In this document: positions 12,303 to 61,646 of the stretch, in pieces
Position numbering within the stretch: position 1 is the first letter of the stretch
Layout of the letters: each line of letters starts with the position of its first letter
Source: Clostridia bacterium
Lineage (GTDB): Bacteria; Bacillota; Clostridia; Oscillospirales; CAG-272
Direction of reading: 5' to 3'
Assembly (NCBI GenBank): GCA_017463125.1
Contig: JAFTPV010000005.1
Span: forward strand, 7,519-71,518
Length of the DNA: 64,000 nt
Notes under the pieces: model-generated
Told to the model about the DNA's origin: nothing
Database searches by the model: none
What the model saw: the letters and a program-made list of their open reading frames with translations, nothing else
Translations under genes and position numbers: made by a program

Positions 12303-12446
12303 TTAAGTCCATGAGCTATCGTAATAATCGTCGCTCCAGTTGGGTGTTTTGCCTTCGCCGGAGGTGGCTATAACGTCCCCTGCCTCAAAGGTGACAATCT
12401 TTATCTCGGGGTCGAGATATGGTGCTTTGCGTTTCTCTTCTTTCAA
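12303..12446 (-). CDS. 47-aa peptide, cassette 1 gene C: MKEEKRKAPYLDPEIKIVTFEAGDVIATSGEGKTPNWSDDYYDSSWT
   Basis: Translated by hand; AGGAGG RBS, TTG start, TAA stop; homologous peptides at the same position in two other cassettes. Confidence 0.85.
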   Translation of the reverse strand: MKEEKRKAPYLDPEIKIVTFEAGDVIATSGEGKTPNWSDDYYDSSWT

Positions 12447-12477
12447 ATTTTTCGCCTCCTTTTTAGATTTTTATGTG

Positions 12478-12504
12478 TATTTGCTAATAATAATTTACAT
12501 TTTA
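12478..12504 (-). promoter_or_regulatory. 27-bp motif upstream of the peptide gene, identical to 61678..61704
   Basis: TAAAATGTAAATTATTATTAGCAAATA (minus strand) is an exact match between cassettes 1 and 3; function unknown. Confidence 0.5.
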
Positions 12505-13757
12505 GTGGGTTTCTTTATGTTCTCGAGGAATGCGTCATACTGTTTCTTACCGTGAATAGGCGGCATAAGACCTTCAAGCTCCAGCGCGCCGAATATCTTG
12601 CCGACAAGGCCTGTTGTGCAGAGTATGGTTGCGTTTACGTCACCCTCGTTGATAAGTCCGGGGGTTACAGGTGCGCCCTGTGAGGTGGGGCAGGTGCAAC
12701 CAGGACAGTAGGAGAAGGAGCCGTCCGTTTTCTTAAATGTGAGCGCCTTTCTTTTTGATGCTTTGATGCCCTCGGGCGCCATGCGTATCAGGTCAAGATA
12801 TATCTTTTCTGCCTCCGCCTTTTCTGTGTCGTTTCCGTACTTTCTCAGGTTTGATATAGCATTCCATGCAGAGTACCAGGCGTTAAACTGGTAGCAAACG
12901 GTGGAGCATTTTTCATCAGAGCAGATGCAGTCCATAGCCGTTCTTGCTACGTTTGCCGCATTAGGTATTGTGGATTTTGCCGTACCGTAGAAGCAGCTTA
13001 TCTTAAGGATACCATTTATCGCCTCGTAGCCTGTCGCTGTGCCCCAAATTCCCGTATCGGCCCTCTGGTGACTGTTAAGAATTTCTATAGCTATGTCCTT
13101 GTAGCCCGCATTTACTATCTGCGCGCCCTGCGCCGCTATGACGTTGCCCGACCAATACGCCTTCTCTTCCCAGTCGAAAGAGTTCATATACTCTCTGAAA
13201 GCATCCTCCGAGCGAAGATACTCGGGCATTGCCGAGAGGGTTTCATTTTTCTCTTCTCCTTTAGCCTCGCGAGCCGCCTTTAGTCTCTCGTTTGCGGTAG
13301 GTGCGGGGAACTTGTAGCCGAGGCGACGCGAAAGGTCCTCGCTCCACATAAGGTCACGTCCTCGGCGGGAGTCGCGGATATTCTTGCCCCACTGCTTGTG
13401 GTAGATGTATCCGTCCTCGGAGTCAAAAAGGGAGAGATTAAATTCCTTTATTTTTTCGAGCATCCATTTTGGGTGCTCAAGGTCGGATTTTACCATTCCC
13501 GAGCCTTTAAGGTAGTTCATCGCCTGTATTGTGGACTCAATGTCGGGTAGGAAGCCGTCGTTATCCCTTGCGGAATTTGAGTAATACCAGCCTCCGATGT
13601 CGAAGTCAAAAAGCTTTGCAAGCCAAATGACGTCGGGTGTGCCGTAGGCTGAATAGAGGTCCTCTACGGCATCAATAAATTCATTGCCGTTACCGCCGAG
13701 CCTTGTTACCTCAGCGGAGAGCTTTTCGTATTTTTCTTTTCTAAAAGCTGTATTCAT
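12495..13757 (-). CDS. Stand-alone cytoplasmic 'domain X' protein, cassette 1 gene B (predicted alpha/alpha toroid, prenyltransferase/squalene-cyclase-like repeats)
   Basis: 420 aa, no signal peptide; GGWYYSNSARDN.GFLPDIEST, GYIYHKQW, SRRGRDL, NGILKIS, FNAWY, KTDGSFSY, EGDVNAT. Confidence 0.8.
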   Translation of the reverse strand: MNTAFRKEKYEKLSAEVTRLGGNGNEFIDAVEDLYSAYGTPDVIWLAKLFDFDIGGWYYSNSARDNDGFLPDIESTIQAMNYLKGSGMVKSDLEHPKWMLEKIKEFNLSLFDSEDGYIYHKQWGKNIRDSRRGRDLMWSEDLSRRLGYKFPAPTANERLKAAREAKGEEKNETLSAMPEYLRSEDAFREYMNSFDWEEKAYWSGNVIAAQGAQIVNAGYKDIAIEILNSHQRADTGIWGTATGYEAINGILKISCFYGTAKSTIPNAANVARTAMDCICSDEKCSTVCYQFNAWYSAWNAISNLRKYGNDTEKAEAEKIYLDLIRMAPEGIKASKRKALTFKKTDGSFSYCPGCTCPTSQGAPVTPGLINEGDVNATILCTTGLVGKIFGALELEGLMPPIHGKKQYDAFLENIKKPTKM

Positions 13758-13812
13758 TTTCTTTTTTGTGTTTGTGTCGCGGCTTGCCGATATTTCACGG
13801 CAAGCCTGTTTT

Positions 13813-16800
13813 TTAGTTTGCTGTGTACTCTTTTTCGATTATTCCAACGAAGGTATCATCGAAGTATGCGCCAAAGCCGTTATTTAATCCGCCTCTGGGT
13901 CTTACCAAAACAGAATCATAAGTTGCGCCAATATCAATGCCGTCCGACTTAATCGTCTTTGAGTAAATGTATACTCCGTCAACATAGTACTTTGAAATTC
14001 CGTTGCCGTAGGTTTCAACCCTTAACGTGTGCCACTCATCAGTTTTTATCTCGCCGCCTTTATCAAGCGTGTTTACAAACTGATACGGTGCAACGCAGAA
14101 GCGGTATCCACTGTCAGCACTAGAATCGGCGACTATTGAAATGCAGGCTGTTATGAGTCCGCGCGTAGTTGTATCAGAAGCTCCCGAACCGGTGGAATAA
14201 ACGGTTTGACCGCTTGCATTTGTAGAAGTGTAGGTCTTGCCAAGCTCAATAGCAAAGGCTTCCTTATAAGTTTGTGTCGCATAACTTTCAAGCGCTGAAG
14301 TTTCTGCACTCTTTATCATAATTTTAGTTTCAAAAACTAAACAGTTACCCGACTTCAAATTTGACTTATTTGTCGTAAATACGAGAGGCGTGGTATCCTT
14401 CGTATCGTACTTATGATATATGAGCACCTTGTTTGCAGCATTGCATGGATCGGTTATGATATTGAGGTAAGCTCTGTCGTCCGTCGTGGCGGTGCTTGAG
14501 CTATCGTAAATCATATATCCCGCCAGCGAATGTTTATTAATATTATTACGGTTACAACCGTATGCAAGCCCCTCTACTGCAAGGCTCTTTGCGCTATCAG
14601 CATCGTTATAAACAAGACCGCCGTACTCGGTGAAATACTCTCCGTCGTAAACGTCTTTTGGCGTTTCGGGGGGTGTGGGCTCGTCGGTATCGTCACCGCC
14701 GCCTGTGATTGTGTCGTCACCGCTATCACCCGAGCCTGTGCCGTTTGAGCTGAAGCACATATTGTCAAAGTATACTTTAGCCTCGCTTGCTTCCTTACGA
14801 AGAAGGAGCGCAAGGTAAGGAGTGCCGCTGACATCGGCTGTAAATTCTTCGGTAATAATGACCTTCTCATTGATAGAATAGATTACCTTGTCGTTATCAA
14901 GGTCATACTTTGCAGTAAATCTTATCCACTCGTCACCAGAGACTGTAAGCTCACCAATAGTGAACGTGCCGTCATTGTTTGCTAAAATGTCAAGAGTTGT
15001 ATACATTTTCGGTGTTGATTCACCACCGCCTGTGCGGTAATTTGCAGCAAGTGCTACGCGAAGAACCCATTTGTTTTCCTCGTTCTCGAGCCCTACTACC
15101 TCACCTAGCTTCATTCCGGTTTCAAAGATATACACACTTCCTGCGCCGACAACGTTCTTTACGTATATTTCGCCCTGATAGCTATTGTTTATCTTTGCGT
15201 AAAGCAGGCTCTTTCCACCATCATCGCTCGCTATGCTGAGGTAAGCGTAAGTGGTATTTCCGGGCGAGGTGGTAGACTGATTTCTGACTATCACTCTATC
15301 GTCCATAGGAAGCTCGATGCCGGTGCCGCCCTTGTCGATTCCGTTATATGCGTCGCTCATATTATCAAAGCTGAGGCCGCCGCTGACGAAATTCTTACCT
15401 GGTGCGCGTCCGTCAATCTTAAGCTCGGGAACAGTTCCATCGTAGGATTCGGCAGTTGCTATGCAGGTGGTATTATCGAAGAATACGTCACGGCTCTTAG
15501 TTTGCTTATTAAGAATGAAGCCGACGTGGCTGAAGTCCTCTGGCGAAATCTCAACAGCCGCAGTGTGTACAAGCTCACCGTTTACATATATTGCCGCGAC
15601 TCCATAGCTCTCACTTGTTACGGTGTAATACTGTATTCTGAAATTGAACCAGGTGTCACCGTCAACCTTTACGCGCATGCCGTCAGGAGCCTCAATATCA
15701 AAGGTGCCATCAGCCTTTGCGTAGAATTTAATTTCGGAGTAGAAGGTGGGTATTGCATCTGTGGTCGTTGTGCGTATGCCCTGGGTGAAGCCCATGCGCA
15801 TAGTCCATGCCGTATCATCAGCGGTGAGCGAGGGCGACACGAGCTTAAGGCTGGTTTCATAGATGAAGGTCTTGCCCTCTCCGCCCTGGCGCTTGAAGTA
15901 ATACTCGGAGGTTTTATCAGTCGTATTCTTGCCGAACCTGAGCGATTTACCGCCTATTTCGGTGTTGAATATGATATATGAACCCGTTTCCTGATATGCG
16001 GCATCGGTAATACCGTTGTTTCTTGCGAATATCTTATCAAAGGCGTCTATTTCGTTGCGCTTGTCAATATCCGTCCACACATTTCCGGTATATTGGTTAA
16101 AGTTGTTACCGCCGTACTGCTCGAAATACTTGCCTGGGAGGAGTCCCTCGTCTATTTCGGGAAGCGGGTCGGGCTCTGCCGCTAAGCGCTCGGTTTTAAT
16201 GTTATCAAGGAGGATGGTACAGTTGGCATCGCTCCACGTATAGAGTCTGACCTCGTTTACGTTGTTTGAGGTATAGGTTGCGTTATTGTAAGCATTATAG
16301 CCCGTACCAATAAGTACACCGTCAATATACACCTTTACAAGAACATCTGCTATTCCGTCACCGGTATAGTCTATATCGGTCTTTTGATACTCCATACGCA
16401 GCTTAAACCACTTGCCCGCCTTTGCAACCTGCTTTGAAATATAGGTTGCTCCGCCGGTGTTGTCGCTGAGAATTACGCTTCCGCTTGAATACTGGAGCGT
16501 CATTTTTGTCGCGTATTGGTTGCCTGCCATAAAGTAGACTTCAACCGCGTCAGATTTAGTAAGGAAGTTTGCCGCAATATCAGCCTCAAAGGCTACTCTG
16601 TTTGTATTTTCATCCGCCTTGATAACGGGTATATACAGAGAGTCGTTTCCGCCGACACTCGTGGTATATTCGAGAACCTTGCTCGCCGCGCCATCGATTA
16701 TCATTTCCTTAACCCTGAGATTTGCAGAGCCGGAACGGAAGTCAAGCCTGAACAGCCCCTTAACGTTACCCGTCGAGGTCTCTTCAAAGGTGATTTCAGC

Positions 16801-19800
16801 CTTGTTCTTCTCGGGTGAGGCTGTGTCGGATTTTCCGATAGCAAAGTACATATTATAGCACTCCGCTTTTACGTTATCGAGTGTGAGAGCTGTATTTGCC
16901 TTATTCGAGGTTGCGGTTACGTAATCGCACGAAAGGTCTGCGTTTTCCTGCTTATAGACAAGGCTCGTTGTACCTATCGTTTTACCGTTTAGCACTACGT
17001 TCATAGCGTCCTTAGCCGCGCTGTACTCTATCCGCAGAGTGCCGGAGCCCTGCTCAAAGCTGCAGAGAGGTACAAGATTATATACCTTCTGTTCGGTTAC
17101 CTCGTATACCTTAACGACGTCACCGTCGGTTACAAAATCAAGAGCGGCTATAATGTGTCCGTCCTCATTTGTAAAGGCTACTCTGAACTCCGAATTTTGC
17201 TTTTCGGCTATGGTGAAATCTGCTTCAAGGATAACCGCGCTGATTACAGGGCTTCTCTTATTTACGGGGACTTTAAGCTGTGAGCCGGAGGAGCTTTGTC
17301 CAAAATCGACCTTACCCTCGTTAAGCTTCGCTCCGCTTGCGGTACAATCACCAAGTCCGTCGGTAAAATCGTATACCTTCTCAGGAATTGTAGGCTCGGT
17401 AACCTCGTCGTATGATACTACGTCCCTTTCCGCCTTAACCGTATGCACCAATACCGCACCGCTTACACCGTCTGCCGAGATATTGGCAAAGGTCAGCTCG
17501 CCGTAAATATTGTTTATAGCTCTTTGACAGAAGGCGTCAAGAGTTGCAACTATTGTTTTATCAAGATATATAAGAGCCGTTCTCATAGTTCCGAAATACT
17601 CAACTCTTATAGTAAATTTCTTGCCTATCGGAGCTTCAAATCCGGATATCTTTGCTCCGGTCGCCCCGCTTGAAGCCTCGTGAAGCGCAAGATATTTTAC
17701 TCCGTCACGCTGTTCTACTATAAGATGAACCCTGACCATTGCAACAGAGGTGGTGGTGCGTAAGACAAGCTCATACTTTGCTCCTACTGCAGTACTCTCG
17801 TCAACGGTGAGGGAAAGGTCTGCTACACCGCAGTTTGCCTTCTGGGTTCTGACGGTTACAGGAACCTTCAGCGAGCCTGACTGCAAATCAAGCGCGCTTG
17901 TGCCGTCAATCTCCTTAAGCTGCGAATCGGTTGTCAGGTCACCGTGAATACCGTTTGCAAAATCATATACAACCTCTTCCTTATCGGGTGCGTCAACGTT
18001 TATAAGAAGCTTCTCTTGCGGGTCGTTCACTATCTCGTATTGCTTTGACGTCTTGGTTACTGTGGTGTTGTCCATAAGAAGAGTCGTATTATTAGTGGAC
18101 ATTACAGCGACTCTTACACCCCTGTAATTTTCAGAGGGCTTTCCGCCGCCTTCAAGCTTTGCACCGTCTCCGCTGTACCAGTTGTCGCTGACGGCTATTA
18201 GGGTTTCGTTAATGTATATTTTAATTCGGATATTGGCTCTATCCTGGGAGTAATACTCAACTCTGAGCTTAAACCACTCACCGACAGCCGCTACTCTGCC
18301 AAGGGATACCGACCTCGAGTTTTTAGACTCACCGGCAGACTCCTCGTGCAGATATACTCCGTCGTTTTCATCTATAATTTCGTCACCGTTTTCGTCCTTG
18401 ACGGTAATGCCTATCATATAAATTCCGTCGTGAATTGTGATGTGCGAAATATAACCCGCATCACTTGACTCAACGAGGAAATCGGATTCGCAAATAAAGG
18501 TCTTGGCTCCGAGATACATAGACTCGTACGGAATTACTACATAGTCGTATCCGTTGTTCTTCGACTCAAATCTTAAAACGTTACCGTCCCTGCCCATTTC
18601 AACCGTAACGTCACCGCTTGAAGAAATGCTCTTGGTAAAGCCTTCGGGTGTCTGACCAATCGTGCTGTCCTCATAATCAAGAGGCTCGGCGTTTGGAACC
18701 TCGTCCTTGACCGACTCGTTAAGGTCGGTTACGATCTCCATATATCTTATAAAGTCGCTCTTTGTGTACATAGAAACCATCGAAAGACCGAGAACTCTGA
18801 ACATTCTCTCCGTCGTACCGACGCTTCCGAGCTCGGTAGCGTTTATGTCTCCCTCTACCTGATTGGGAAGAGCGACGATCATCTCTGAGGAGGTTGGTGA
18901 GCTGTATTTCTTCGAGTAGGAAATAGAGCCGTCAGGCTTTATAAAGGCGGCAATACACGAGGTCGTGTTCTTTATTGACTTAACCGCATTTTTAAGTATC
19001 TCTGATCTTACCTCGGAAAGATTTTCTTTAAGACTCGTGTTATAGCTCTCAATATTCTGAACGAGATTAAGCACCGCATACCACGTATTGTAAATATCCG
19101 TGATGGCGGTAACGTCATCGGGGTTCATAATACCGATAACCTCAAGGGTAGAGCTTATCGCCTCCATAACGTAGGGGAACGGGCGGCCAAAGGTTGACCA
19201 CGCGCCCGAAATCTTAAGAAGGCCGTTTACTCCCTCATAGTCGGCGTAATCGTACGTTGTCCAAAGACCTGTTTTAGGATTTTGCTTTGTTTCAAGCCAG
19301 GTGAAGAGCACGTTCTCAAGCCCCTCTTCTCCGCGTCCCTTAAGCACCTGGTCTCTCTTTTTTATCTGGCTTATCTGAGTTGAAAGAATAGAGCTTACCT
19401 TGTATGGTGATGCGTTTATATCAAGGGTTTTAAGATAATCGGAAAAAGCCTTTGCGCTCACGAAGCGCGCCTCAACGTAAGCATCGTCACTTACGGCTAT
19501 GACCTTGGATACCGCGGTAACAGCCGATGTCTTTTTCAAGGGAGCAAGCATAGACACGGGGGAAACTCTCGTTCCGTCTGCCGGAATACCGTCGCCCTTT
19601 GTTCCGTTTGCCGTATCATAGGTCGGGCTATTGCCAAAACTTTTAAGAATTGCCTCCGCCTTGCCAAGATCTCTGCCCTTTCTCGTTTCCGAGCCGTCAA
19701 CCTGTGCCTTCGTCCACTGGGGATGATAGAAATATCCGTTTTCGTCCTGGCGCGACTTAACGAAATATACTATCTGTTCCTGCATCCACTCGGGGATAGC

Positions 19801-20637
19801 AGTCTTAAGTGCGCCTACCTCATCTATCATACCCGAGCCGGAGATAAAATCAAGCGCTTGACCCGTGCTCTCAATGTCGGGGAGATAGCCTATGGTATTT
19901 CTGCCCGAGTTTGAGTAATACCAGCCACCCTCGGTGGGCTCGTAGAGATTGGCAAACCAGGAGATAACGTCGTCGCTGTATATCTTATAGTGATTTACAA
20001 GCGCGTTATAAACCTCCTCGGCTTCTTTTTCGCTAAGCTTTGCCTTGAGGCTATTCTTTACACTAGCCCACTGCTTTTCTACGGTTACCTCGTCAAGCCT
20101 TTCCTGGTATTCAACATAGTCCACAAGGCCGCTCGTGACCTTGCCCTCTGCGAGCTTTATCACCTTGTCACCGTCAATACAGTTATTGACTATGTATTCA
20201 AGTGCCACAATCTGCGCAGCTTCAACTCCATAGTCATCGCTGTCAAAGGCTACGGCAATTTTTCGTCCGTCGGAATATATCACAAATCCGAGATGATTTT
20301 CGTTCTCGGTATAGCTCTTTAGTTTTTCAAGCTCCGCGTACGCCTGCTTTGAAAGCTCACCACCCGTCCTGCCGACGATTATCTGTCCGTCTGCCTCGGG
20401 AGTGTCAGCGCCCTTTACACTCAGATATGAGCCGATTTCGGCACCGAGGCTGTTTGTGAAATCAATCAGAATTTTCGCGCCGGCACCCTCTCCGTTTATG
20501 ACAGTTAAGGATTTTCTGGGGGCGTATATTACCTCATCCGTTGCTCCGCCGACCTCTTTATTTGACGTACAGCCGAAAAGGGACACGACAAGTAAAGAAA
20601 TAACTGCAAGAGCTGCCGATAGTCTAAATTTCTTCAT
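13813..20637 (-). CDS. Giant lipoprotein, cassette 1 gene A (domain X plus multiple beta-sandwich/LamG-like modules)
   Basis: 2274 aa; lipobox LFGC; domain X in the N-terminal third; repeated W-F-x-L-R-x-E-Y...YI[ND]...[LF]DN modules; last three modules begin G-x-[YN]-F...GG. Confidence 0.85.
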   Translation of the reverse strand: MKKFRLSAALAVISLLVVSLFGCTSNKEVGGATDEVIYAPRKSLTVINGEGAGAKILIDFTNSLGAEIGSYLSVKGADTPEADGQIIVGRTGGELSKQAYAELEKLKSYTENENHLGFVIYSDGRKIAVAFDSDDYGVEAAQIVALEYIVNNCIDGDKVIKLAEGKVTSGLVDYVEYQERLDEVTVEKQWASVKNSLKAKLSEKEAEEVYNALVNHYKIYSDDVISWFANLYEPTEGGWYYSNSGRNTIGYLPDIESTGQALDFISGSGMIDEVGALKTAIPEWMQEQIVYFVKSRQDENGYFYHPQWTKAQVDGSETRKGRDLGKAEAILKSFGNSPTYDTANGTKGDGIPADGTRVSPVSMLAPLKKTSAVTAVSKVIAVSDDAYVEARFVSAKAFSDYLKTLDINASPYKVSSILSTQISQIKKRDQVLKGRGEEGLENVLFTWLETKQNPKTGLWTTYDYADYEGVNGLLKISGAWSTFGRPFPYVMEAISSTLEVIGIMNPDDVTAITDIYNTWYAVLNLVQNIESYNTSLKENLSEVRSEILKNAVKSIKNTTSCIAAFIKPDGSISYSKKYSSPTSSEMIVALPNQVEGDINATELGSVGTTERMFRVLGLSMVSMYTKSDFIRYMEIVTDLNESVKDEVPNAEPLDYEDSTIGQTPEGFTKSISSSGDVTVEMGRDGNVLRFESKNNGYDYVVIPYESMYLGAKTFICESDFLVESSDAGYISHITIHDGIYMIGITVKDENGDEIIDENDGVYLHEESAGESKNSRSVSLGRVAAVGEWFKLRVEYYSQDRANIRIKIYINETLIAVSDNWYSGDGAKLEGGGKPSENYRGVRVAVMSTNNTTLLMDNTTVTKTSKQYEIVNDPQEKLLINVDAPDKEEVVYDFANGIHGDLTTDSQLKEIDGTSALDLQSGSLKVPVTVRTQKANCGVADLSLTVDESTAVGAKYELVLRTTTSVAMVRVHLIVEQRDGVKYLALHEASSGATGAKISGFEAPIGKKFTIRVEYFGTMRTALIYLDKTIVATLDAFCQRAINNIYGELTFANISADGVSGAVLVHTVKAERDVVSYDEVTEPTIPEKVYDFTDGLGDCTASGAKLNEGKVDFGQSSSGSQLKVPVNKRSPVISAVILEADFTIAEKQNSEFRVAFTNEDGHIIAALDFVTDGDVVKVYEVTEQKVYNLVPLCSFEQGSGTLRIEYSAAKDAMNVVLNGKTIGTTSLVYKQENADLSCDYVTATSNKANTALTLDNVKAECYNMYFAIGKSDTASPEKNKAEITFEETSTGNVKGLFRLDFRSGSANLRVKEMIIDGAASKVLEYTTSVGGNDSLYIPVIKADENTNRVAFEADIAANFLTKSDAVEVYFMAGNQYATKMTLQYSSGSVILSDNTGGATYISKQVAKAGKWFKLRMEYQKTDIDYTGDGIADVLVKVYIDGVLIGTGYNAYNNATYTSNNVNEVRLYTWSDANCTILLDNIKTERLAAEPDPLPEIDEGLLPGKYFEQYGGNNFNQYTGNVWTDIDKRNEIDAFDKIFARNNGITDAAYQETGSYIIFNTEIGGKSLRFGKNTTDKTSEYYFKRQGGEGKTFIYETSLKLVSPSLTADDTAWTMRMGFTQGIRTTTTDAIPTFYSEIKFYAKADGTFDIEAPDGMRVKVDGDTWFNFRIQYYTVTSESYGVAAIYVNGELVHTAAVEISPEDFSHVGFILNKQTKSRDVFFDNTTCIATAESYDGTVPELKIDGRAPGKNFVSGGLSFDNMSDAYNGIDKGGTGIELPMDDRVIVRNQSTTSPGNTTYAYLSIASDDGGKSLLYAKINNSYQGEIYVKNVVGAGSVYIFETGMKLGEVVGLENEENKWVLRVALAANYRTGGGESTPKMYTTLDILANNDGTFTIGELTVSGDEWIRFTAKYDLDNDKVIYSINEKVIITEEFTADVSGTPYLALLLRKEASEAKVYFDNMCFSSNGTGSGDSGDDTITGGGDDTDEPTPPETPKDVYDGEYFTEYGGLVYNDADSAKSLAVEGLAYGCNRNNINKHSLAGYMIYDSSSTATTDDRAYLNIITDPCNAANKVLIYHKYDTKDTTPLVFTTNKSNLKSGNCLVFETKIMIKSAETSALESYATQTYKEAFAIELGKTYTSTNASGQTVYSTGSGASDTTTRGLITACISIVADSSADSGYRFCVAPYQFVNTLDKGGEIKTDEWHTLRVETYGNGISKYYVDGVYIYSKTIKSDGIDIGATYDSVLVRPRGGLNNGFGAYFDDTFVGIIEKEYTAN

Positions 20638-20660: not shown

Positions 20661-22802
20661 TTACTTTACACTGAGAATAGCGAACAGTACGACCGACTGC
20701 TCCATATTCTGTGAAACGTTTATCGCCTTTATCTTGGATATTTTCTTTTCGGGATAGGGGTTTTTCCACTCGTACGCAAAGGCCGTGCAGGTGTCAGTTA
20801 TTACGGGAGTGGTGCTGTAACACAGCGACTCAAACCACTGGTGATTATGAGTGAAATAACAGGGTGTTGCACTCTTGTTATCACCGCTAACGTCAATATC
20901 TATCTCTGCGCCGTTCTTGTCTGTGGACTTGCGATGACGCTCGAAGCTGTATTTACTCCAGCCTGCCTCCTTACCGTAGTACACTCCGACAATTTCAACC
21001 GTGCCGTCCTCGTAAGTAACGGCGTAAGCGCCGAGTGCCCAAATGTTTTCGTCCTTGAAGAGATGGCTCGGCTCGAACTTCATCTCCTCCTTCGTGTTAT
21101 GAAGGAAGAGGAGCGAGTCGGCGTATGCATCGGGCTTAACGAGTATCGCGCCCGTATCAACCGATACTCCCGAAAGCTCGTCACCGAATACGGAGAGAGC
21201 CGTCTTTACCCTTTTATCACTTATGTCGGCATCGGATAGCTTTATTTTCATTGCCGCCTTGCTATCATCACCCTTATATAGAGGAGTGACTCCACCGCCC
21301 GCAAAGAGAGCTGACGGCTCACCGCGCATAATAGCGCGCAGGTAGGGTGTTCGTCTTACTATCTCGTGGCAAACGTCGGAAAAGTCAGCATTTGTATACT
21401 CGCTGTTCCAGAGTATGTAAGAGGAGAACATCATCTCAAAGAATATACCGTCTCTTGCGAAGGTAAATTCGTCGGGAACGCACCAGGAGGATACCTCGGC
21501 ACCCTTGATACAGTTCTTTTTCGAGCGCTCGTCCCAATCGCCGAACTGACTGCCGTGAAAGTTTCCGTAAATAACGTCAATTCCGCGCTCCATAAAGCAG
21601 TCCTCCGACGCGTGACCGAGCGAGTGATACCAGTCGAGCATCAGAATGTCCGAGGGAAACATATCGAGCGACTTATAGGTTGACGGAAGATGATAGTGAA
21701 GCCCGTACTTATTATTACCCGAGTAGTCCTTGACACCGACGGGGTTTCCCTTATAATTAATGAAGGTTTGAGCGCTCTCACCCCACATAGCTATTCTTAT
21801 TCCCTTTTTCTTATAGAACTCGTAAAGCCTTAAAATTTCCTTACCTACAAGCTCGTGACCCGTTTTTTCCTTACATTTATCGCACCAGCCGAGAACGCGT
21901 ATCTCGTCGTGACCTATGGAAACGGTCTTTGGCTTAAAGACCTCTATTACCTCCTCGGCAACGTCGAAATAAAGCTCGTAGCTCTTTTCGTTACTTGGGC
22001 AGTACGTATCGGGAAACGGGTCGTCCTGCCTCTCGGCTATCTCGGGGTGGGCTATGCAAAGATAGTATGAGTGAGAAAGTGCCTGAACCTCGGGGATAAC
22101 CTCCATTCCGCGAGAACGGCAGTAGCAGACGAGATCGCGTACCTCCTCTTTAGTAAGATACGAGCCGCCTGCAAGCTCGGTATGAACCGAGTCCTTCCAG
22201 TATACGTCAGAGCCCTGAAGCGCACGGTACTTGCCTTGACCCGGGAATTTATTATTAAGCTGGTCGCAAAATCGCTCCCACGCGGTGTTTATCTCGGGGT
22301 GTCTATCGTACTGCATACCGCCGCCGACCTCTAAAATAACCGTGTTCATCTTGAGGAACGCCATAGTGTCGACAATGCGCTTAAAGCTCTCTATCTTATC
22401 TCTTGCGGGCATATAGAAATGCACACCGCGCATCTCGGTATAGGGCTTATCCTCTACGTGAGTAGACGGAACGGTAAATCCGTTTTCATTATTTATAAGC
22501 TGGATAAGGGTTGAGAGAGCGTATATAGCGCCGCCCTTATCCGCTGCCGTAATGCTGATTTTATTTTCGGTAACGTCGAGGGTGTATTCCTCATTTCCCA
22601 TATCACCCCTGCCGAGCTCAATATCAGCACACTCCGAAACTCTCACGGAATCAATCGCGTATAAGGTTTTAACAAGTGAGGCAAAATACTCCGCAGCCTC
22701 GGAAAAGCTCTCGTCCTTTACACTTATTTTCAGTTTTTTATCTATCTTAAAGCAGCCATCGTCCTCGCGGTAGGTTACTGCCTTGGGGAAAATTTTCTTC
22801 AT
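20661..22802 (-). CDS. GH20-like beta-N-acetylhexosaminidase
   Basis: N-terminal EEYTLDV...GAIYALSTL domain, DKP...RGVH, TKEEVRDLV.YC..RG.EVIPEV...SH, SIGHDE catalytic motif. Confidence 0.8.
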   Translation of the reverse strand: MKKIFPKAVTYREDDGCFKIDKKLKISVKDESFSEAAEYFASLVKTLYAIDSVRVSECADIELGRGDMGNEEYTLDVTENKISITAADKGGAIYALSTLIQLINNENGFTVPSTHVEDKPYTEMRGVHFYMPARDKIESFKRIVDTMAFLKMNTVILEVGGGMQYDRHPEINTAWERFCDQLNNKFPGQGKYRALQGSDVYWKDSVHTELAGGSYLTKEEVRDLVCYCRSRGMEVIPEVQALSHSYYLCIAHPEIAERQDDPFPDTYCPSNEKSYELYFDVAEEVIEVFKPKTVSIGHDEIRVLGWCDKCKEKTGHELVGKEILRLYEFYKKKGIRIAMWGESAQTFINYKGNPVGVKDYSGNNKYGLHYHLPSTYKSLDMFPSDILMLDWYHSLGHASEDCFMERGIDVIYGNFHGSQFGDWDERSKKNCIKGAEVSSWCVPDEFTFARDGIFFEMMFSSYILWNSEYTNADFSDVCHEIVRRTPYLRAIMRGEPSALFAGGGVTPLYKGDDSKAAMKIKLSDADISDKRVKTALSVFGDELSGVSVDTGAILVKPDAYADSLLFLHNTKEEMKFEPSHLFKDENIWALGAYAVTYEDGTVEIVGVYYGKEAGWSKYSFERHRKSTDKNGAEIDIDVSGDNKSATPCYFTHNHQWFESLCYSTTPVITDTCTAFAYEWKNPYPEKKISKIKAINVSQNMEQSVVLFAILSVK

Positions 22803-22815
22803 CGGCTATTTCCTT

Positions 22816-24219
22816 TCAAAATCTGACACGCACCTCAATCATTGAGTGCGCCTTTACGTTTAGTTTTTTATCCTTTATCATATTGTCAAGCATAGTGTAG
22901 AGGTATTCCTCGTCGGTTTCTATGACCTCTGCCGAGTCTATATCAGCGCCGAGGACGTCAAAATCAAGGGTCACAGGCTCAGCCTTTGTGTTTGCGATAA
23001 TGATAACACCCTTTTCCTCATTTTTAGCACCGAGGATATATACCTCCTCATCGTCCGTCCCCGAGGCAACCTCGCAACCCAGCTTATACGCCTGGTTAAA
23101 GGACTTAAAAGCGTAGTAGGTCGGGAATGGGGTGAATGTTAGAGGATTGAAGAGTCCCTTGTAGACCGAAACTCCGAAGCCTGCATCGTAGTAGCATAGC
23201 ATATCAACCTCATTTTTCTGCGAACCGAGAAGGACAGCTAAGGTGTTTGCCGCAACCTCGGGCGTGCCGCGCAGTCTTGCGTCCTGTCGGTACGCGCTCC
23301 ACTCGTTGAGTATGTCGGGTACGTTCTCAAAGCCGTAATTTGCAAGCACCCTTCTGCAATGCTTCTGGCAAGCGAGTATCATCGACGGGCCTACGTTTGT
23401 GTATGCGTGCCAGGAGAAGAAATCAAGCGGCACGTTATTATCTCTGACATAGGAGAGGAACTTATGGGCATAATCTATACGATAGGCTCTCTTGTATTCG
23501 GGATTTGTGTAATCCTTGGTTGAGAAATCAAAATTAGTAACTCCCGTAGCGTCAGGGTCTAGGTAATGGAAGCCTGCAAAGCCCATTGACGCATATCCTC
23601 CGACCATAATCGAGTCACCAAAGCACTTCTTTAAGTGAGTGGCGGCAGTCTTATAGAACTCAAGGAACTGCTCCCTTGTGCCGTGCCAGGTCTGCGCTAT
23701 CTCATCAGGATTTAAGTCGACGTCAGGCTCGTTCCATATCTCCCAATACTTAAGATTATAATGGAAGCCGTCAGCCCAGCCCTCGTTATAATGGCGGATT
23801 ATATGCTCACATATCTCTGCCCACTTCTGAAAGTCCTTCGGGGGATAGACGTGATATGCCTTTATGTTAGCCCAGTTTTCAATAGTTATGCCGAGGCGGT
23901 AAAAAGGCTCTACACCGAAATCTAAGAGCGCCTTCAGCAAAACGTCGGTATGGGCGAAATCATAGGATGCCGGGTCGTTTACGTCAGCATCAAAGTTGCG
24001 GAAGATGTTCGGTATATCGACAAATCTGCCGCCGCCAAACGCACCTGCAACATCGTGAAGCCTTGAATAAGGGATGCCCGCTTCCTCAAGGTAGTGGAAG
24101 AGCTTTGTGTTTACGCTCGCCTCACCGCCGAGAATGGGCGCCTGACCAACTCCGTGCATAGGACGTATCCTTCTGCCTGTTTCGTTATTAAAATCGGTTG
24201 TAACCTTTACTGCTTTCAT
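22816..24219 (-). CDS. GH39-like glycoside hydrolase
   Basis: RLHD, YWEIWNEPD, PLDFFSWHAY, LNEW motifs of clan GH-A/GH39. Confidence 0.8.
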   Translation of the reverse strand: MKAVKVTTDFNNETGRRIRPMHGVGQAPILGGEASVNTKLFHYLEEAGIPYSRLHDVAGAFGGGRFVDIPNIFRNFDADVNDPASYDFAHTDVLLKALLDFGVEPFYRLGITIENWANIKAYHVYPPKDFQKWAEICEHIIRHYNEGWADGFHYNLKYWEIWNEPDVDLNPDEIAQTWHGTREQFLEFYKTAATHLKKCFGDSIMVGGYASMGFAGFHYLDPDATGVTNFDFSTKDYTNPEYKRAYRIDYAHKFLSYVRDNNVPLDFFSWHAYTNVGPSMILACQKHCRRVLANYGFENVPDILNEWSAYRQDARLRGTPEVAANTLAVLLGSQKNEVDMLCYYDAGFGVSVYKGLFNPLTFTPFPTYYAFKSFNQAYKLGCEVASGTDDEEVYILGAKNEEKGVIIIANTKAEPVTLDFDVLGADIDSAEVIETDEEYLYTMLDNMIKDKKLNVKAHSMIEVRVRF

Positions 24220-53000: not shown

Positions 53001-54818
53001 AGTAACCTTAAGTCCTTGGCTGTATTCTGCGGCCTTGTCAGGCTCGAAGGAGAAGGAGCCGTCCTTCTTTTTGAAGGTGAGCTGCTTTTGTGCCGAAATT
53101 CTGATAGCCTCCGGCGCCATTTCCAGAAGACGCGCGCGAGTTTTTTCGGCAAGAAGGCGGTCCTCGTCGGTTTTTGCATGAGTCGTTATGTTCGCTTGCA
53201 GCTCCGCAAGAGCGTACCAGACGTTGTAAACGTAGCACACCGTCTTTACCTCATCTTTTGAGGTAAGCATGGTGATACAGGATTCAACGGCAAGGTCTGC
53301 ATTCGGGAATACCTTACCGAATGTATTATAGGTTGGAATTATTTTGAGTAGCGCGTTTGTCGCGTCATAGTTTACGCCGTTATCCCAGAGTCCCGTTGAC
53401 TTGTTCTGGTGGTCGTTAAACCAGCTTATAAGAATGTCACAGAGGGAATAGTCGGCAGAAAGCTCTTTATCACGGTTTTGAATTTCCTTTGCCTGAGAGC
53501 CTATCTCGTTTCCTATTTCATAGAAGGATTTTTTGCCTTCCTTATTGAGCTTGCTCAATTCATCAAGATAACCCATAAAGCTAACCTTGTCAACAAGGTG
53601 CTCTGTAGTCGTCTGCGCTACCGGTACGACCGACGAAACGGCCGCTACACGCGAGGTCGACAGCCGCATAGTAAGCGCGGAGGCCTGTTCGGGATACGAT
53701 AAAGAAGAGCCGTCAGGCAAAATTCCGTCTCCCTTATCGCCAAGCGGAGTGTCATAGGTTGGCTTGTAACCGAAAAGTGCGAGAGTGGATACCGATTTTG
53801 TCAGGTCTCTCGCCCTGCGTGACAGGTGCTTGTCGACATCCGATTTTTGCCATTGCGGATGGTAGAAATAACCGCTCTTTGGGTCTTGCAGACTTTTTGT
53901 GAAATGTACGATCTGTCTCTGTATTGTCTCGGGGAGCTTATCTCGCATATCGGTAGCGTCGTCAAAGAGCCCTGTGGCAATAGCGAAGGTGAGAGCCTGG
54001 TTCGTTGATTCAGCATCCGGTAGATAACCTACAGTGTTACGCGCGGTATTAGAGTAATAGAAGCCTCCGCCACCGCAGTATATAGTGCTTTGACATTCGC
54101 CCTCACAAACGCAGATAACAGGCTCATAAAGGTTTGCAAGCCAGGAAACAATATCATTTGTTGTAAGTGCATCGTAATAGAATTTTACGGCTTCGGCAAT
54201 AGCCGCACCGTCGCCGCCTGCCTTGTCAGCCTCTTCTATAAAGTTTTCCCAAGCCACAGCGTCGTTTGCATCATCTATTGCCTGTTGGTATTCAATAGGG
54301 TCAACAAAGGCATAGCTTACTATTCCTGAGCCTAGGCTCAAGGTACGCTTGTCGCCCACAATATCGGAAATTAAGTATTTGCATGCTGTGGTTTCGGCTG
54401 CGCCTATTCCGTATTTATCGTTTTGATAGGCTATCGCAAGAGAAAGGCCATCGGAATAAATGAGATAACCGCTCTCATCCTCCGAATCACCTTCTGTTCT
54501 TTCAAGAAGACTGTATGCTCTCTCTGAAATATCCGTTTCAACATCACCAATATGTATTTCGTGCTTTCCGGTGGATCTGTCCGGGGTTTTCATCCTTGGA
54601 CTGTATCCCAAAAGTGAGGTCAACTCTTCTCTTATAAGGTCTACTCCGGGAGAAAGCTCATTTATTATCAGAGTAACACTCTCTTCAGGCGAAAATATCA
54701 CGCTGTCCGATGAAGAACCGGAGCCTGCGCCAGCCTCGTTTCCTGCGGTACAGGAAATAAGAGTCAGCATCAAAAGCATTAAACAAAGGGCAAGCGTGGT
54801 TGCTTTTCTTATAGTCAT
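50028..54818 (-). CDS. Giant lipoprotein, cassette 2 gene A (domain X, beta-sandwich modules, Gly-rich linker, peptide-like tail)
   Basis: Start reassigned to MTIRK (AGGAGG RBS), 1596 aa; lipobox LISC; collinear with the N-terminal two-thirds of 13813..20637; NQGGS repeats; ends LFGGNDSTDDAWTKY. Confidence 0.85.
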   Translation of the reverse strand: MTIRKATTLALCLMLLMLTLISCTAGNEAGAGSGSSSDSVIFSPEESVTLIINELSPGVDLIREELTSLLGYSPRMKTPDRSTGKHEIHIGDVETDISERAYSLLERTEGDSEDESGYLIYSDGLSLAIAYQNDKYGIGAAETTACKYLISDIVGDKRTLSLGSGIVSYAFVDPIEYQQAIDDANDAVAWENFIEEADKAGGDGAAIAEAVKFYYDALTTNDIVSWLANLYEPVICVCEGECQSTIYCGGGGFYYSNTARNTVGYLPDAESTNQALTFAIATGLFDDATDMRDKLPETIQRQIVHFTKSLQDPKSGYFYHPQWQKSDVDKHLSRRARDLTKSVSTLALFGYKPTYDTPLGDKGDGILPDGSSLSYPEQASALTMRLSTSRVAAVSSVVPVAQTTTEHLVDKVSFMGYLDELSKLNKEGKKSFYEIGNEIGSQAKEIQNRDKELSADYSLCDILISWFNDHQNKSTGLWDNGVNYDATNALLKIIPTYNTFGKVFPNADLAVESCITMLTSKDEVKTVCYVYNVWYALAELQANITTHAKTDEDRLLAEKTRARLLEMAPEAIRISAQKQLTFKKKDGSFSFEPDKAAEYSQGLKVTLANTNEGDVNATSLCANGTIERCLAALGLASYAPKQYGKAESAIFLSIMEELDPVIKDEVGDPREPITFDDGLELPQGVEISSLASSGGFIGVVNDERGEGNVLEVRSTDDGYDRVLFNIQNSIASSESCQVFEGDMCITSSDESYTVQLIMGTAYMLCFKVTGDTVNVWDSSTGNHSLYIENELGITPKIGEWFNLKVEYYNGDHNSVRIKVYYNGKLAAVSDNYYDANSIKITEGESVPTNVFNNTRIAVLSTEAASFLMDNVCLYRTNDLYKAVPSADLPINVDAKGKDRVTHDFETIDSLDKLKDGLAIDGAFELSDTIADGDATKALKFASADASSLSVYSVTGAAGAVCMSNEMRFILTSLSGKATLELNMSESNSRGKPVARFIIEIEASGETRTLSIREYPNGTLGSYTDCYKMPIGESFVLKAEYFESGKATVFYIDGEIAAISQSVCSNAALYKAAKLEIVGSSGVNGLMIDDLYSERIKKSLDEAIEPEGDSEEVDFDNQLPEGVTVNGGEIVSVGADRLLNLTGTGSNIIIPLNRRDNGCKTVIFSTELYKNKSQSGAYRISLIKANGDIALAYDIVTTETKVMVYEVTKAKGRYASMLFSFEITDKALFSFEYYTTQNITKLFINDVFVANSSLIYEEEFAQSDLTSIKLELLTDSSLYFNGMIAESYTKVYKESKSEAENSENGNKLLTFESSFTGNIPSGITPTLKSLGGRVTVEEAVRNLVASKVLAFNSTKGNNDALVFKKINTDNKSVAVFTLDLKIDSNVLGGRSVYQLYFRKGDTPAKDSAFCLEIRYTDGGAVEVLNVTPKGQSKQHITVASTGEWVNLRLEYYIADTGISAVRIFANNSYVGDALSGTNPILPENLDNVRLYTYGDVDARMLLDNVSFATDNLTEAPDNEESDNQGGSDNQGGSGNQGGSGEQGGTENPGGTGNESGSDNDNNNPDTEGGESNTPPVPETDDELFGGNDSTDDAWTKY

Positions 54819-54992
54819 AATTGACCTCCTTGAAATCTGTTTTTTGTTTTCTGATTTAATTTTAGCACCTACAAAAGCGTTTTTACATATCTTAATGTGT
54901 CTAAACAATTTCATTTTGTTGTTTCGCCTTGATTTTGATATTTTATTATGTTAACCTAAAAATAACATCAATAAACAACTGTGAGGTTATAT

Positions 54993-57936: not shown

Positions 57937-57985
57937 TACTTTTTTGAAAGTTTTTTTGCAACAGGCGCTTTTATTTGCCTTTTAC

Positions 57986-58014: not shown

Positions 58015-58044
58015 TTATTGATAGAAAAATGCATGGAGCAATAT

Positions 58045-60008: not shown

Positions 60009-60042
60009 TGAGAGCAAGCCAACTTGGGCTTGCTCTCTTTTT
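60009..60042. terminator. Terminator between rnc and cassette 3
   Basis: GAGAGCAAGCC...GGCTTGCTCTC-TTTTT. Confidence 0.8.
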
Positions 60043-60051
60043 ATTTATGGA

Positions 60052-61467
60052 TTATTTAGCTTCGTACGCGTTATCTGACAATCCGATTATAAAGTTATCT
60101 ACACATACCGTAGAATTTATAGGCATTGCATTGTCAAGATAGAAGTAAATTCTATTGTTATATGTATTCGCGGTATCGGTAAGAGTCATAGTATATCCAT
60201 ATGTATCGTCTACATATATCTGCACATACTTTACTCCACCAACATTATAGAATTCGAGGCGGATGTTGCACCATTTACCGGGCGTTATAACGGCAGTGTC
60301 TTTTGCTCCAAGAGAAAGTGTCGTTCCATCTGAATTTCGGTAAGCCTTAATGTAATCGCCACCGTCAAGGCGGAACAACGGACGACCGTCGCTGGTTCCC
60401 GTGAACATATCGCTCATTTTATAATCAAACTCATATATCTTACAGCTAACCTTTGTAAGATCGGTATTCTCGTCGGAAAGCGAAGAATCAGAAATTCCGG
60501 AATAATAGAAATATGCCTGGGTCCACTGTTCAACCGTTTTTGTCATGGTCGCTGCACTGTCTACAACACTTCCTGTTGAAACACTTGCACTACTAAATCC
60601 GTTGAGACTAGCACCATCTGTTCCAAAATCGCGGGCTACCGGCTTTCCGAGAAGGGCGGTTCTGTCATTCCAATACTTACCCTCTCCGCGCTCGTAAGCC
60701 TTAACCTCGATAACAGCGTTCCCGCTTACGGTGAACGTTCCGTCGGTAATAACCTCGGAGGAGGTTACGTTGCCGTTTGCATCAAGGAGAGATACCTGAT
60801 ACTTCTTTGTAGCGTCTGCGGGAGTAAAGGTAATAGAATCGGTTTCGAGATACACGCCTGCGGAGTATGCACCGTCGATAGTGCCGAGGTCGGTGTAAAC
60901 GTAGTAGTAATCGGTTACAAGGTGGTCTACGTTATTGTTTGGGTTGGTATCAATATTAAGGACTTTACCCATATTAGCCGCAAACTCAAGAGTAGAGAGG
61001 TAGAACTCTTTACGAATTTCGTCCTTGCCGGGAGTTGCGTAACCGTTCTTATAGAGCTGCTCACCGAGATACTCTGCGATGCTGTATCTTTTAGCCTCGC
61101 TTGTAGCGTCACCCGAGGTTGCGGTAACGGTGTACTGCGTTGCAAAGTCCTGAGGACCTACGCCCTCGGTTATAAATACGTATGCCGCCTTGTTCTTTAT
61201 AGTCTGCTGATTTTCTGCGGTTGCGGCAATGGTCTGTGACCACTCGGTGTCACCGCCTGTTACGGTGAGTGTAACTGTGTCCCCCGTTACGGTAGACGCA
61301 TCAACTGCATACATAAGTGAGAATTTGTCGCTGTAATAAACGTTCTGGCTGAATATTTCGGGCTTTGTGGCTTCAGTGTCTTGCGCTGATACTGCGAATG
61401 CCGTTGCGGTGAGCGCAGTCATAGCTGCCATTATGGCAATAACTTTTACTATCGTTTTGTTTTTCAT
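60052..61467 (-). CDS. Secreted/surface protein, cassette 3 gene D
   Basis: Start reassigned to MKNKTIV (AAGGA RBS); signal peptide; EIFSQNVYY..MYAV, YSIAEY N-domain; C-domain highly similar to the end of 63004..64000. Confidence 0.85.
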   Translation of the reverse strand: MKNKTIVKVIAIMAAMTALTATAFAVSAQDTEATKPEIFSQNVYYSDKFSLMYAVDASTVTGDTVTLTVTGGDTEWSQTIAATAENQQTIKNKAAYVFITEGVGPQDFATQYTVTATSGDATSEAKRYSIAEYLGEQLYKNGYATPGKDEIRKEFYLSTLEFAANMGKVLNIDTNPNNNVDHLVTDYYYVYTDLGTIDGAYSAGVYLETDSITFTPADATKKYQVSLLDANGNVTSSEVITDGTFTVSGNAVIEVKAYERGEGKYWNDRTALLGKPVARDFGTDGASLNGFSSASVSTGSVVDSAATMTKTVEQWTQAYFYYSGISDSSLSDENTDLTKVSCKIYEFDYKMSDMFTGTSDGRPLFRLDGGDYIKAYRNSDGTTLSLGAKDTAVITPGKWCNIRLEFYNVGGVKYVQIYVDDTYGYTMTLTDTANTYNNRIYFYLDNAMPINSTVCVDNFIIGLSDNAYEAK

Positions 61468-61514
61468 TCTTTCTTTCCTTTCGTTATTGTGTTTTTCTGT
61501 GAATTTTGCGCGCG

Positions 61515-61646
61515 TCATGTCCATCCTCCGTCGTCCCACGAGCCTTGAGTTAATTTTCCTGACGTGGATATTACGTCGGCAGAGTCAAATTTAACGATGT
61601 CAAGCTCGGGCGTTTGGTATGGACTTTTCAAGTCTTTTTTCCTCAC
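61515..61646 (-). CDS. 43-aa peptide, cassette 3 gene C: MRKKDLKSPYQTPELDIVKFDSADVISTSGKLTQGSWDDGGWT
   Basis: Translated by hand; AAGGAG RBS, GTG start, TGA stop; homologous to the other two peptides. Confidence 0.85.
   Translation of the reverse strand: MRKKDLKSPYQTPELDIVKFDSADVISTSGKLTQGSWDDGGWT

Follow-up and report, generated by a model that had tools for sequence, protein, structure and literature searches.

A 64,000-nucleotide stretch of DNA from an uncultured gut Clostridia bacterium (GenBank assembly GCA_017463125.1, contig JAFTPV010000005.1, positions 7,519 to 71,518 of the forward strand; hereafter the window) carries three micropeptide genes, C1, C2 and C3, whose products begin with a common block of 30 residues and end in a short acidic tail. 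What are these peptides, and with which proteins do they act? A first-pass annotation of the window had read them as leader and core of RiPPs (peptides made on the ribosome and modified after translation) that depend on a RiPP recognition element (RRE) of the PqqD type. We find that they belong to a large family under purifying selection, and we consider it probable that C1–C3 are LppA-like precursors of the linear polyphosphorylated peptide (LPP) type, that enzymes encoded on another contig of the genome (C18) mature them in trans, and that each product acts with its own gene cassette.

Three micropeptide genes on the minus strand

The window contains three minus-strand cassettes, each ordered A-B-C-D, of which the C genes encode putative LppA-like precursor peptides: C1 at 12303..12446 (47 aa, TTG start), C2 at 48566..48709 (47 aa, ATG start) and C3 at 61515..61646 (43 aa, GTG start), the stop codon being counted within each range. 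The plus-strand frames at these coordinates give stops or nonsense, and it is on the minus strand that the hand translations of the first-pass annotation are borne out exactly. A Shine-Dalgarno sequence of the GGAGG/AAGGAG type stands 7–9 nt 5′ of each start, in agreement with the good ribosome-binding site reported for every peptide. Beyond translation and binding site, the C1 call has a hidden Markov model (HMM) match (E = 2e-29), that of C2 near-identical orthologs in two other loci (L094 and L104), and that of C3 the ratio of nonsynonymous to synonymous differences (pN/pS) against its orthologs (0.14 and 0.27).

The three peptides had also been described as a gapless alignment of a conserved leader with a variable, acidic, Trp-Thr-ending core, none of it annotated. 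Y10, F20 and the D24-V-I-x-T-S-G30 block hold in that alignment, but P13 is no family constant, the residue being P in 3, A in 8 and T in 1 of the 12 paralogs described below. Acidic tails with W-T at or near the end are seen in all three peptides, yet the tail is not simply variable, as a Trp among the last residues is invariant in 12/12 paralogs. Nor are the peptides wholly unannotated, since identical or near-identical small proteins have already been called, without a name, in public collections.

Two further observations concern these genes. Between the B stop and the C start (12447-12497 and 61650-61706, minus strand), cassettes 1 and 3 have almost identical spacers, ...TAAATTATTATTAGCAAATA..., which cassette 2 does not share. 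Among metatranscriptomes, one gut run contained 7% of the sampled words, with contigs on parts of D1 (11333-12090) and of A1 and none on C1; it suggests, weakly, that an RNA library includes a related cassette, and has no bearing on C1.

A large family under purifying selection

Searches covered the whole genome (1.9 Mb in 28 contigs, 91.8% complete). A strict regular expression, Y-x2-P-x6-F-x3-D-[VIL]-[ILV]-x-[TS]-S-[GA], matches C1, C2 and C3 only in the six-frame translation, and the motif is far beyond chance. When 40,496 stop-to-stop frames were searched with an HMM of the three peptides, a further nine paralogs emerged at E < 1e-3, which brings the number in the genome to 12, together with one weak further candidate on contig C6 (E = 0.12). 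All nine additional paralogs have an ATG start and a Shine-Dalgarno sequence, and K7, Y10, D24, S29 and the near-C-terminal Trp are invariant in the 12-way alignment.

The C1–C3 family consists of real genes under purifying selection. The codon-level, synonymous signature that the first-pass annotation had named as the mark of a conserved peptide is present, with codon-position identities of 0.52/0.77/0.32 across the 21-codon leader block of the 12 paralogs and pN/pS of 0.14–0.32. Compared with two orthologs in other metagenome-assembled genomes (MAGs), C3 gave pS 0.217 / pN 0.030 and pS 0.687 / pN 0.187, and the two orthologs compared with each other gave pS 0.567 / pN 0.182 (ratio 0.32). A fourth ortholog pair shows 2 synonymous and 0 nonsynonymous changes, and C2, which is 99% identical to its orthologs in L094 and L104, is uninformative on selection.

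A profile of the 12 paralogs matches 3,583 proteins at E ≤ 1e-3 among 1.84 billion representative proteins, with lengths of 33–88 aa for all 150 family matches listed. No Pfam or NCBIfam model matches the family, its motif finds no relevant mention in the papers searched, and its profile gave nothing meaningful against PDB sequences; it is a common micro-protein overlooked by gene callers and family databases. In 223 aligned members, numbered from the conserved Tyr, Y-3 is K in 192 and Y itself is Y in 220, Y+5 is L/I/V, Y+7 and Y+8 are I/V, Y+10 is F/L/I, and Y+18, Y+19 and Y+20 are T in 196, S in 221 and G in 155, respectively; the D at Y+14 and the V/I and I at Y+15 and Y+16 were required by the regular expression used for placing the sequences. 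The YxxP leader to which the first-pass annotation had drawn attention is present as a strand motif of that type, yet the family mostly has YxxA (Y+3 is A in 135 and P in 74). The tail is acidic and Gly-rich and very often ends in GWT.

A single maturation locus on another contig

Pfam and NCBIfam scans of the cassette proteins found no modification enzyme inside the cassettes. The sole match to PqqD above the Pfam cut-off in the genome is an 85-aa protein on contig C18 (C18:58357-58554; PF05402, E = 9.5e-13, 48.7 bits with the cut-off at 23.4), encoded in a block of five same-strand genes for an HprK-like protein (248 aa), the PqqD protein, a peptidase (154 aa), a nucleoside triphosphate (NTP) transferase (398 aa; PF14907, E = 2.3e-38) and a membrane protein (191 aa). 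The HprK-like protein has weak NCBIfam matches only (HprK-related kinase A/B and ScmC, E = 0.004–0.009); the kinase P-loop S-G-x-G-K-x-T is invariant in 17/17 homologs, and its place beside the RRE is conserved. The peptidase (L003 7892-8356), whose gene adjoins that of PqqD, has a weak NCBIfam match to sigpep_I_arch (E = 0.001) and carries the motifs G-x-S25-M-x-P, H64 and G-D79-N as in the archaeal/SipW type, with Ser25/His64/Asp79 in 9/9 homologs. The RRE gave nothing meaningful against PDB sequences, and no family peptide was found on contig C18 or in the intergenic DNA beside the locus. Also on this contig, two copies of a short repeat that reads like tRNA genes lie at L003 9500-9910, between the lppK-like gene and an ABC-2 transporter pair.

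Maturation in trans, which the first-pass annotation had proposed for want of maturation genes in the cassettes, is supported by this single kinase-RRE-peptidase-NTP transferase locus, and the genome-wide search it had recommended returned 12 paralogs, one PqqD above the cut-off and one linked SipW-type peptidase. The set corresponds to the lppA-K-B-S-D-N cluster of the LPP class (Popov et al., Nat Commun 2026;17:6633, PMC13381572), which according to the main text of that paper comprises precursor, HprK-like kinase, discrete RRE, archaeal-type signal peptidase (S29/H68/D93), MsbA-like pump and NTP transferase.

The lasso analogy drawn in the first-pass annotation did not survive. A lasso precursor, with Thr at −2 and Gly1 as the ring former, would accord with the YxxP-hydrophobic-type leader, with the T-S-G that closes the conserved block, and with the relatedness of LPP and lasso RREs given in the main text of PMC13381572. 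The genome, at 91.8% completeness, has no lasso cyclase, with only two short marginal PF00733 matches (23.6 and 21.1 bits, model positions 12–79), and no PF13471 match for a B2 protease; Asp/Glu at core positions 7–9 is not kept among the paralogs; and the linked peptidase belongs to the SipW type of serine enzymes. The matching class is the linear LPP, and we regard a lasso product as extremely improbable.

Other RiPP classes were considered and rejected. Sactipeptides and ranthipeptides were set aside as there is no SPASM enzyme (PF13186) in the genome and no Cys in the 12 paralog cores, lanthipeptides as the cores have no Cys (no LanC search was made), and graspetides as Pfam found none in the cassettes (no ATP-grasp search was made).

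Leader and machinery together in other genomes

That these are RRE/PqqD-dependent, leader-bearing precursors of RiPP type gains support from five other genomes in which the same leader is linked to the RRE gene set. In G243 (locus L081) the genes for a 732-aa Flg_new surface protein, the peptide, kinase, RRE, peptidase, ATP-binding cassette (ABC) exporter and NTP transferase are contiguous, and in G009, of the same genus as the present genome (L037), the peptide is followed by a 1467-aa NPCBM/Big_4/CBM protein and by kinase-RRE-peptidase-exporter-NTP transferase; the exporter in both loci is MsbA-like. Two small open reading frames (ORFs) separate the peptide from kinase and peptidase in G224 (L087), and an acidic lipoprotein separates it from the kinase in G214 (L062). 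The order kinase-RRE-peptidase-(ABC exporter)-NTP transferase recurs in the homologous loci. In the fifth case (G038:C52, L036 6348-9181, minus strand), a peptide with the same type of leader and a three-Cys core stands directly upstream of genes for a 451-aa radical SAM enzyme (CxxxCxxC), for an RRE of the PqqD type and for an HprK-like protein, and here the leader/RRE/kinase module appears to serve a second, radical-SAM RiPP chemistry.

The kinase also tracks the peptide by genome, in counts that are descriptive, as related genomes are not independent: among 41 relatives it is present in 15/15 peptide-positive and 13/26 peptide-negative genomes, and in a class-wide sample of 300 scored genomes, 24 of which have a family peptide besides the present one, a match at E ≤ 1e-36 was counted by hand in 23/24 peptide-positive and 24/276 peptide-negative genomes, at a threshold chosen post hoc, weaker matches covering only the kinase core, in frames of ~300 aa, as a canonical HPr kinase would. 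Five other toroid-rich MAGs have 22, 22, 15, 19 and 5 peptide matches and exactly one kinase match each.

These patterns bear on the idea that the peptides are unmodified micro-ORFs, either small cytoplasmic proteins or upstream ORFs that tune the translation of D. Their position 30–90 nt upstream of D in almost every case and the lack of a modification enzyme in the cassette would suit it. We nevertheless judge it very improbable, given that selection acts on amino acids, including the near-invariant Ser and the terminal Trp, that the same leader stands right before RRE/kinase/peptidase operons and a radical SAM-RRE pair, and that co-occurrence with the kinase is nearly complete by genome.

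Coupling to a toroid and a secreted lectin-like protein

Across public MAGs, the peptides keep the company of the other cassette proteins, namely B, which consists of a toroid-like domain X, and D, which is secreted. A family peptide lies ≤10 kb away in 57 of the 74 loci with a B homolog, 61/62 of the peptides of these loci are on the strand of B, and a D-like protein with a signal peptide follows ≤400 nt downstream in 53/62. A Trp occurs within the last 8 residues in 60/62 of the B-locus peptides and in 12/12 of those in this genome, compared with 5 of the 17 peptides with a locatable motif from the class-wide sample (20 in all, none near B). A C-terminal Trp is thus a specific feature of peptides of the toroid-linked subfamily.

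Within the present genome, 11/12 peptides have a BLASTP-similar D protein next downstream, the twelfth having a protein with a like signal peptide, and domain-X proteins lie ≤12 kb away from 11/12, the exception being C25:118673. A weak PqqD-like match below the cut-off (C25:113995-114111, L002; E = 0.0026, 19.3 bits) was observed ~4.5 kb from this paralog. Domain X is found in 31 tblastn regions and 38 profile matches in the genome, and in 3/41 relatives (G000, G003 and G007), the same genomes that have full-length peptide matches. Its distribution is patchy and all-or-nothing: 38 profile matches in this genome (G000), 36 in G003, 11 in G007 and 0 in the other 38 relatives.

Away from B, the peptide lies 2–150 nt after the gene of a large surface protein (≥440 aa) in 12/20 class-sample loci. 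The C-terminal domain of five such proteins (three from the class sample together with those of L037 and L062) matches the N-domain of D (hhalign 87%, E = 3.7e-6, 72 columns), in a region centred on the motif Y-S-V-x-[ED]-Y ... Y-G-x-x-x-Q; a plain HMM of the D N-domain found no match in the 23 non-toroid loci.

The coupling could be incidental, with LPP-type products that have a role of their own, such as antagonism or signalling, and with A, B and D as a new glycan-degrading or glycan-binding family beside which the peptide genes merely hitch-hike. Genes for GH39, GH20 and GH106-like glycoside hydrolases (GH) and for LacI and AraC regulators flank the cassettes, the C-domain of D has a ConA-like lectin or lyase fold, and domain X also resembles the toroids of GH15, GH76 and GH88, all of which speak for such a reading. 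Against it, C-to-D adjacency is kept in 53/62 cases over many MAGs with gaps of tens of bases, and such persistent micro-synteny is unusual for unrelated functions; the Trp-type tail goes with B; and elsewhere the peptide abuts the large surface proteins whose C-terminal domain is weakly homologous to the D N-domain. We therefore consider incidental coupling unlikely, and favour an LPP-type product that works with its cassette.

Fold of domain X

B1 (12495..13757, minus strand) encodes a predicted cytoplasmic alpha/alpha-toroid of 420 aa that consists of domain X alone, and its paralogs B2 (48744..50003, minus strand; 419 aa) and B3 (61706..62953, minus strand; 415 aa) are 46% and 44% identical to it by sequence comparison. 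B proteins, of ~420 aa and with no signal peptide, are 44–46% identical to one another and 31–32% identical to the domain X of A, with which they have nearly all invariant residues in common. We found no match to B in Pfam (E ≤ 0.01), in NCBIfam or among PDB chain sequences; its homologs form >915 clusters, and the named ones are 'hypothetical protein' entries from Clostridia MAGs.

The AlphaFold2 model of B1 (predicted local distance difference test, pLDDT, 95.8) is an alpha/alpha-toroid. Foldseek returned weak matches only, at a template modelling (TM) score of ~0.39, to type II terpene cyclases, glucoamylases and GH76. A structure search independent of Foldseek gave the protein farnesyltransferase beta subunit (2zir_B; Z 18.0, 284 residues aligned, root-mean-square deviation 3.6) and the geranylgeranyltransferase type I (GGTase-I) beta subunit (1n4p_B; Z 17.1), followed by squalene-hopene cyclase (Z 13.1), MstE (Z 12.9) and epimerases, glycosidases and LanC-like domains (Z 10–12), of which only the top two stand out, as helical repeats reach Z ~13–14 by arrangement alone. 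B shares this fold with the beta subunits of protein prenyltransferases and with class II terpene cyclases, and QW-like repeats were recognised by eye in its sequence. Unlike the prenyltransferase beta subunits, B has no Pfam or PDB sequence match and no alpha subunit, and a copy of domain X is displayed outside the cell on lipoprotein A. By its model, B is like prenyltransferase beta in fold only.

These results address whether the peptides could be ComX-like pheromones, with B as a class-defining peptide prenyltransferase acting on the C-terminal Trp and the kinase/RRE locus irrelevant or accessory. The step from Z 18.0 and 17.1 to the next hit at 13.1, the presence of PF00432 in 13% of members of the ESM Atlas cluster neighbouring B, and the way in which the near-terminal Trp tracks B (60/62 against 5/17) all lean in this direction. 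Weighed against them are the lack of any Pfam match of B to prenyltransferase repeats or of a sequence match to a solved chain, the low TM score of Foldseek hits in which terpene cyclases and glycosidases are mixed, and the fact that zinc ligands were not identified in B. The invariant residues of B are moreover kept in the extracellular domain X of A, where there is no prenyl diphosphate, which argues against a shared reaction that depends on prenyl diphosphate. Known Trp-prenylating RiPP enzymes have, to our knowledge, folds other than that of B. Prenylation of the tail by B is thus distinctly unlikely in our estimate; the shared residues suggest instead that B and A have a function in common, ligand binding or a cofactor-free glycan activity, which would fit better than prenyl transfer. 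A predicted complex of B1 and C1 scored 0.00, in a run with no controls, and is evidence neither way.

The cassettes and their neighbours in the window

The D proteins (~500–550 aa, with a signal peptide) are encoded on the minus strand by D1 (10666..12261, starting at the second ATG of its ORF), D2 (46895..48529, starting 37 nt after C2) and D3 (60052..61467, starting at the ATG at 61467 behind a AAAGGAAAG site). D1 is predicted to be secreted and to comprise a conserved N-domain and a ConA-like C-domain (AlphaFold2 pLDDT 79.6); the N-domain (residues 40–280) is confidently modelled, and a structure search with the C-domain (residues 271–527) returned ConA-like folds, the best being the lectin-like domains of two sialidases (Z 13.7). 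The A genes, also on the minus strand, are A1 (13813..20637), which encodes a 2274-aa lipoprotein with an N-terminal domain X (~residues 196–636) and ConA/LamG-like repeats, A2 (50028..54914), which encodes a 1628-aa paralog with domain X, and A3 (63004..64000), which covers the C-terminal portion of a 1817-aa paralog, the remainder lying beyond the window; the ConA/LamG-like matches of the A proteins are weak.

The C-domain of D is related most closely to the C-terminal ConA-like domain of the A protein from its own cassette. Residues 1999–2274 of A1 (window 13813-14640) are 38% identical to residues 291–548 of D1 (10666-11440; E = 1e-46), and A3 and D3 match at E = 9e-61 (contig C2 70522-75975 against window 60052-60800). 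This kinship suggests either a cassette-specific shared specificity or concerted evolution.

GH39-like and GH20 genes (20661..24219, minus strand) lie upstream of A1 and are read in its direction, and a LacI regulator at 24403-25413 is divergent; beside cassette 2 are a divergent gene for an AraC regulator and, downstream, a GH106-like gene. Just past the latter is a large serine recombinase with Resolvase, Recombinase and Zn-ribbon domains (42420-43934, minus strand). Between cassettes 2 and 3, the plus strand at 56416-60003 encodes a SIR2_2-domain protein (397 aa), an amidohydrolase (264 aa) and an RNase III/dsRBD protein (396 aa).

Proposed maturation and role of the peptides

Taking the genes, the selection on them, the family size, the synteny, the co-occurrence and the enzyme motifs as observed, we consider LPP-type maturation in trans to be the best explanation. 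The single discrete PqqD-type RRE on C18 (LppB-like) would bind the leader motif K-x-x-Y-x-x-[A/P]-E-[LIV]-E-[IV]-[IV]-x-[FLI] as a beta-strand, the HprK-like kinase (LppK-like) would phosphorylate the conserved Ser, the SipW-type signal peptidase (LppS-like) would remove the leader, and the PF14907 NTP transferase (LppN-like) may elongate the phosphate in the manner of lasso peptides that are phosphorylated and glycosylated. Precursors are co-transcribed with cassettes of glycan-utilisation type, and the mature peptide would work with the proteins of its own cassette. It is from synteny and the Trp correlation only that we infer a link to B, A and D; given that the acidic, Trp-ended tail occurs only in the toroid-linked subfamily, it would be recognised by one or more of them.

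Which residue is modified and where the leader ends can be approached by analogy with LppA. Its motif in the main text of PMC13381572 is YxxPxVLxHQxIxFETxxS, in which Y-16 is the key RRE determinant, cleavage after T-1 is RRE-dependent and Ser+3 takes 1–4 phosphates. As far as that text allows the comparison, the peptides resemble LppA in the Tyr, in a hydrophobic residue at +5, in an acidic residue at +14 (E-2 in LppA and D24 here) and in a hydroxyl residue at +18/+19 (the phospho-Ser of LppA and T28/S29 here). The DVIxTSG block thereby probably contains the phospho-acceptor Ser, with S29 as the candidate, and may belong to the mature peptide, which makes the leader/core boundary after G30 given in the first-pass annotation doubtful. 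The cleavage site may lie upstream of G30, near V25|I26 in the Tyr-anchored alignment with LppA; cleavage after G30 may also occur, as the small residues T-S-G would suit a signal peptidase.

Several points weigh against this assignment. Translation of the peptides is predicted from sequence, and their RRE binding, phosphorylation, cleavage and export are inferred. The leader departs from the LPP logo in the main text of PMC13381572 by an aromatic position at Y+10 and not Y+13, a Ser at Y+19 and not Y+18, and a Y+3 that is mostly Ala, so that it is context more than sequence that places the peptides among the LPP precursors. At the C18 locus the 191-aa membrane protein stands in place of an MsbA-like exporter, and elsewhere in the genome there are only generic ABC homologs of ~25% identity. 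The kinase is also found in genomes with no detected peptide, and the 20 class-sample family members with no B homolog nearby indicate that B is dispensable for the family as a whole. Finally, domain X may be a glycan enzyme tied to the peptide by operon membership only, since A and B share nearly all invariants and the cassettes lie among glycoside hydrolase genes.

A more specific role can be envisaged, though we think it rather improbable as formulated. Phosphopeptides, or perhaps phosphoglycosyl-peptides, would serve as cassette-specific adaptors whose tail is read by the toroid of B in the cytoplasm, by that of A at the surface and perhaps by the N-domain of D, so that one LPP machinery would supply a dozen different 'keys' by which as many paralogous glycan-harvesting surface complexes are assembled, addressed or switched. 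If true, this would be the first biological role for the LPP class and would define a new peptide-binding toroid family.

Under the favoured LPP-type assignment, the peptides would represent a large Clostridial branch of the LPP precursor family, whose 3,583 sequence clusters lack a model in Pfam and NCBIfam. The genetic arrangement is unusual: a single maturation locus stands against 5–22 scattered precursors, and every precursor is tied to a secreted lectin-like protein as well as to a new family of toroids, which has grown to >30 copies within a genome of 1.9 Mb. The toroids probably constitute a new family of carbohydrate-active or peptide-binding proteins of gut bacteria, and the strict micro-synteny together with the toroid-specific Trp tail hint at a purpose of the LPP class.

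Comparison with known systems

As described in the main text of Popov et al. (PMC13381572), LPPs come from Paenibacillus alginolyticus and other Bacillota, were reported mostly in Bacilli and only in 2026, and are encoded by clusters found in capsular polysaccharide loci; their role and final product are not established there, and LppN was inactive in a heterologous host, a partner outside the cluster being suspected. Within that description, the C18 locus has the same enzyme set in the same K-B-S-(D)-N order with matching catalytic residues, and locus L081 reproduces the published A-K-B-S-D-N order exactly. A small precursor whose conserved N-terminal strand motif is centred on Tyr and closely followed by a conserved Ser, the lack of a cyclase and an association with polysaccharide genes are further points in common. 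Unlike the published clusters, which contain 1–3 precursors, the C18 locus has neither precursor nor pump, and 12 precursors lie elsewhere in the genome (5–22 in related MAGs); the tail is short, acidic and Trp-ended, each precursor has as partners a secreted lectin-like protein and a new family of toroids, and the hosts are uncultured gut Clostridia. The main text of PMC13381572 describes neither scattered multi-copy precursors nor the Trp tail, nor a partnership of precursors with a lectin-like protein and a toroid of prenyltransferase-like fold, and, supplements aside, it makes no mention of Clostridia, orphan, in trans, glycoside or gut. A literature search on LPP returned no paper besides this one, and the papers on RRE-Finder (PMC7470986) and a 2025 RRE study (PMC12710340) make no mention of HPr kinase, nucleotidyltransferase or signal peptidase.

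The phosphorylated and glycosylated lasso peptides paeninodin and pseudomycoidin are also comparable: as described in PMC7533575 and PMC13381572, an HprK-like kinase acts on a Ser of the precursor and the nucleotidyltransferase PsmN is tied to glycosylation. Their RRE-dependent [Y/W]xxP leader is akin to that of the present family. The genome differs in having no macrolactam cyclase or B2 cysteine protease, and the leader has Tyr and not the Trp typical of paeninodins.

In its overall organization, the system recalls the prochlorosins, in which one machinery serves many dispersed precursor genes with a common leader. Unlike prochlorosins, the tails here are not hypervariable, as the Trp motif is kept, and each precursor sits within a paralogous protein-coding cassette.

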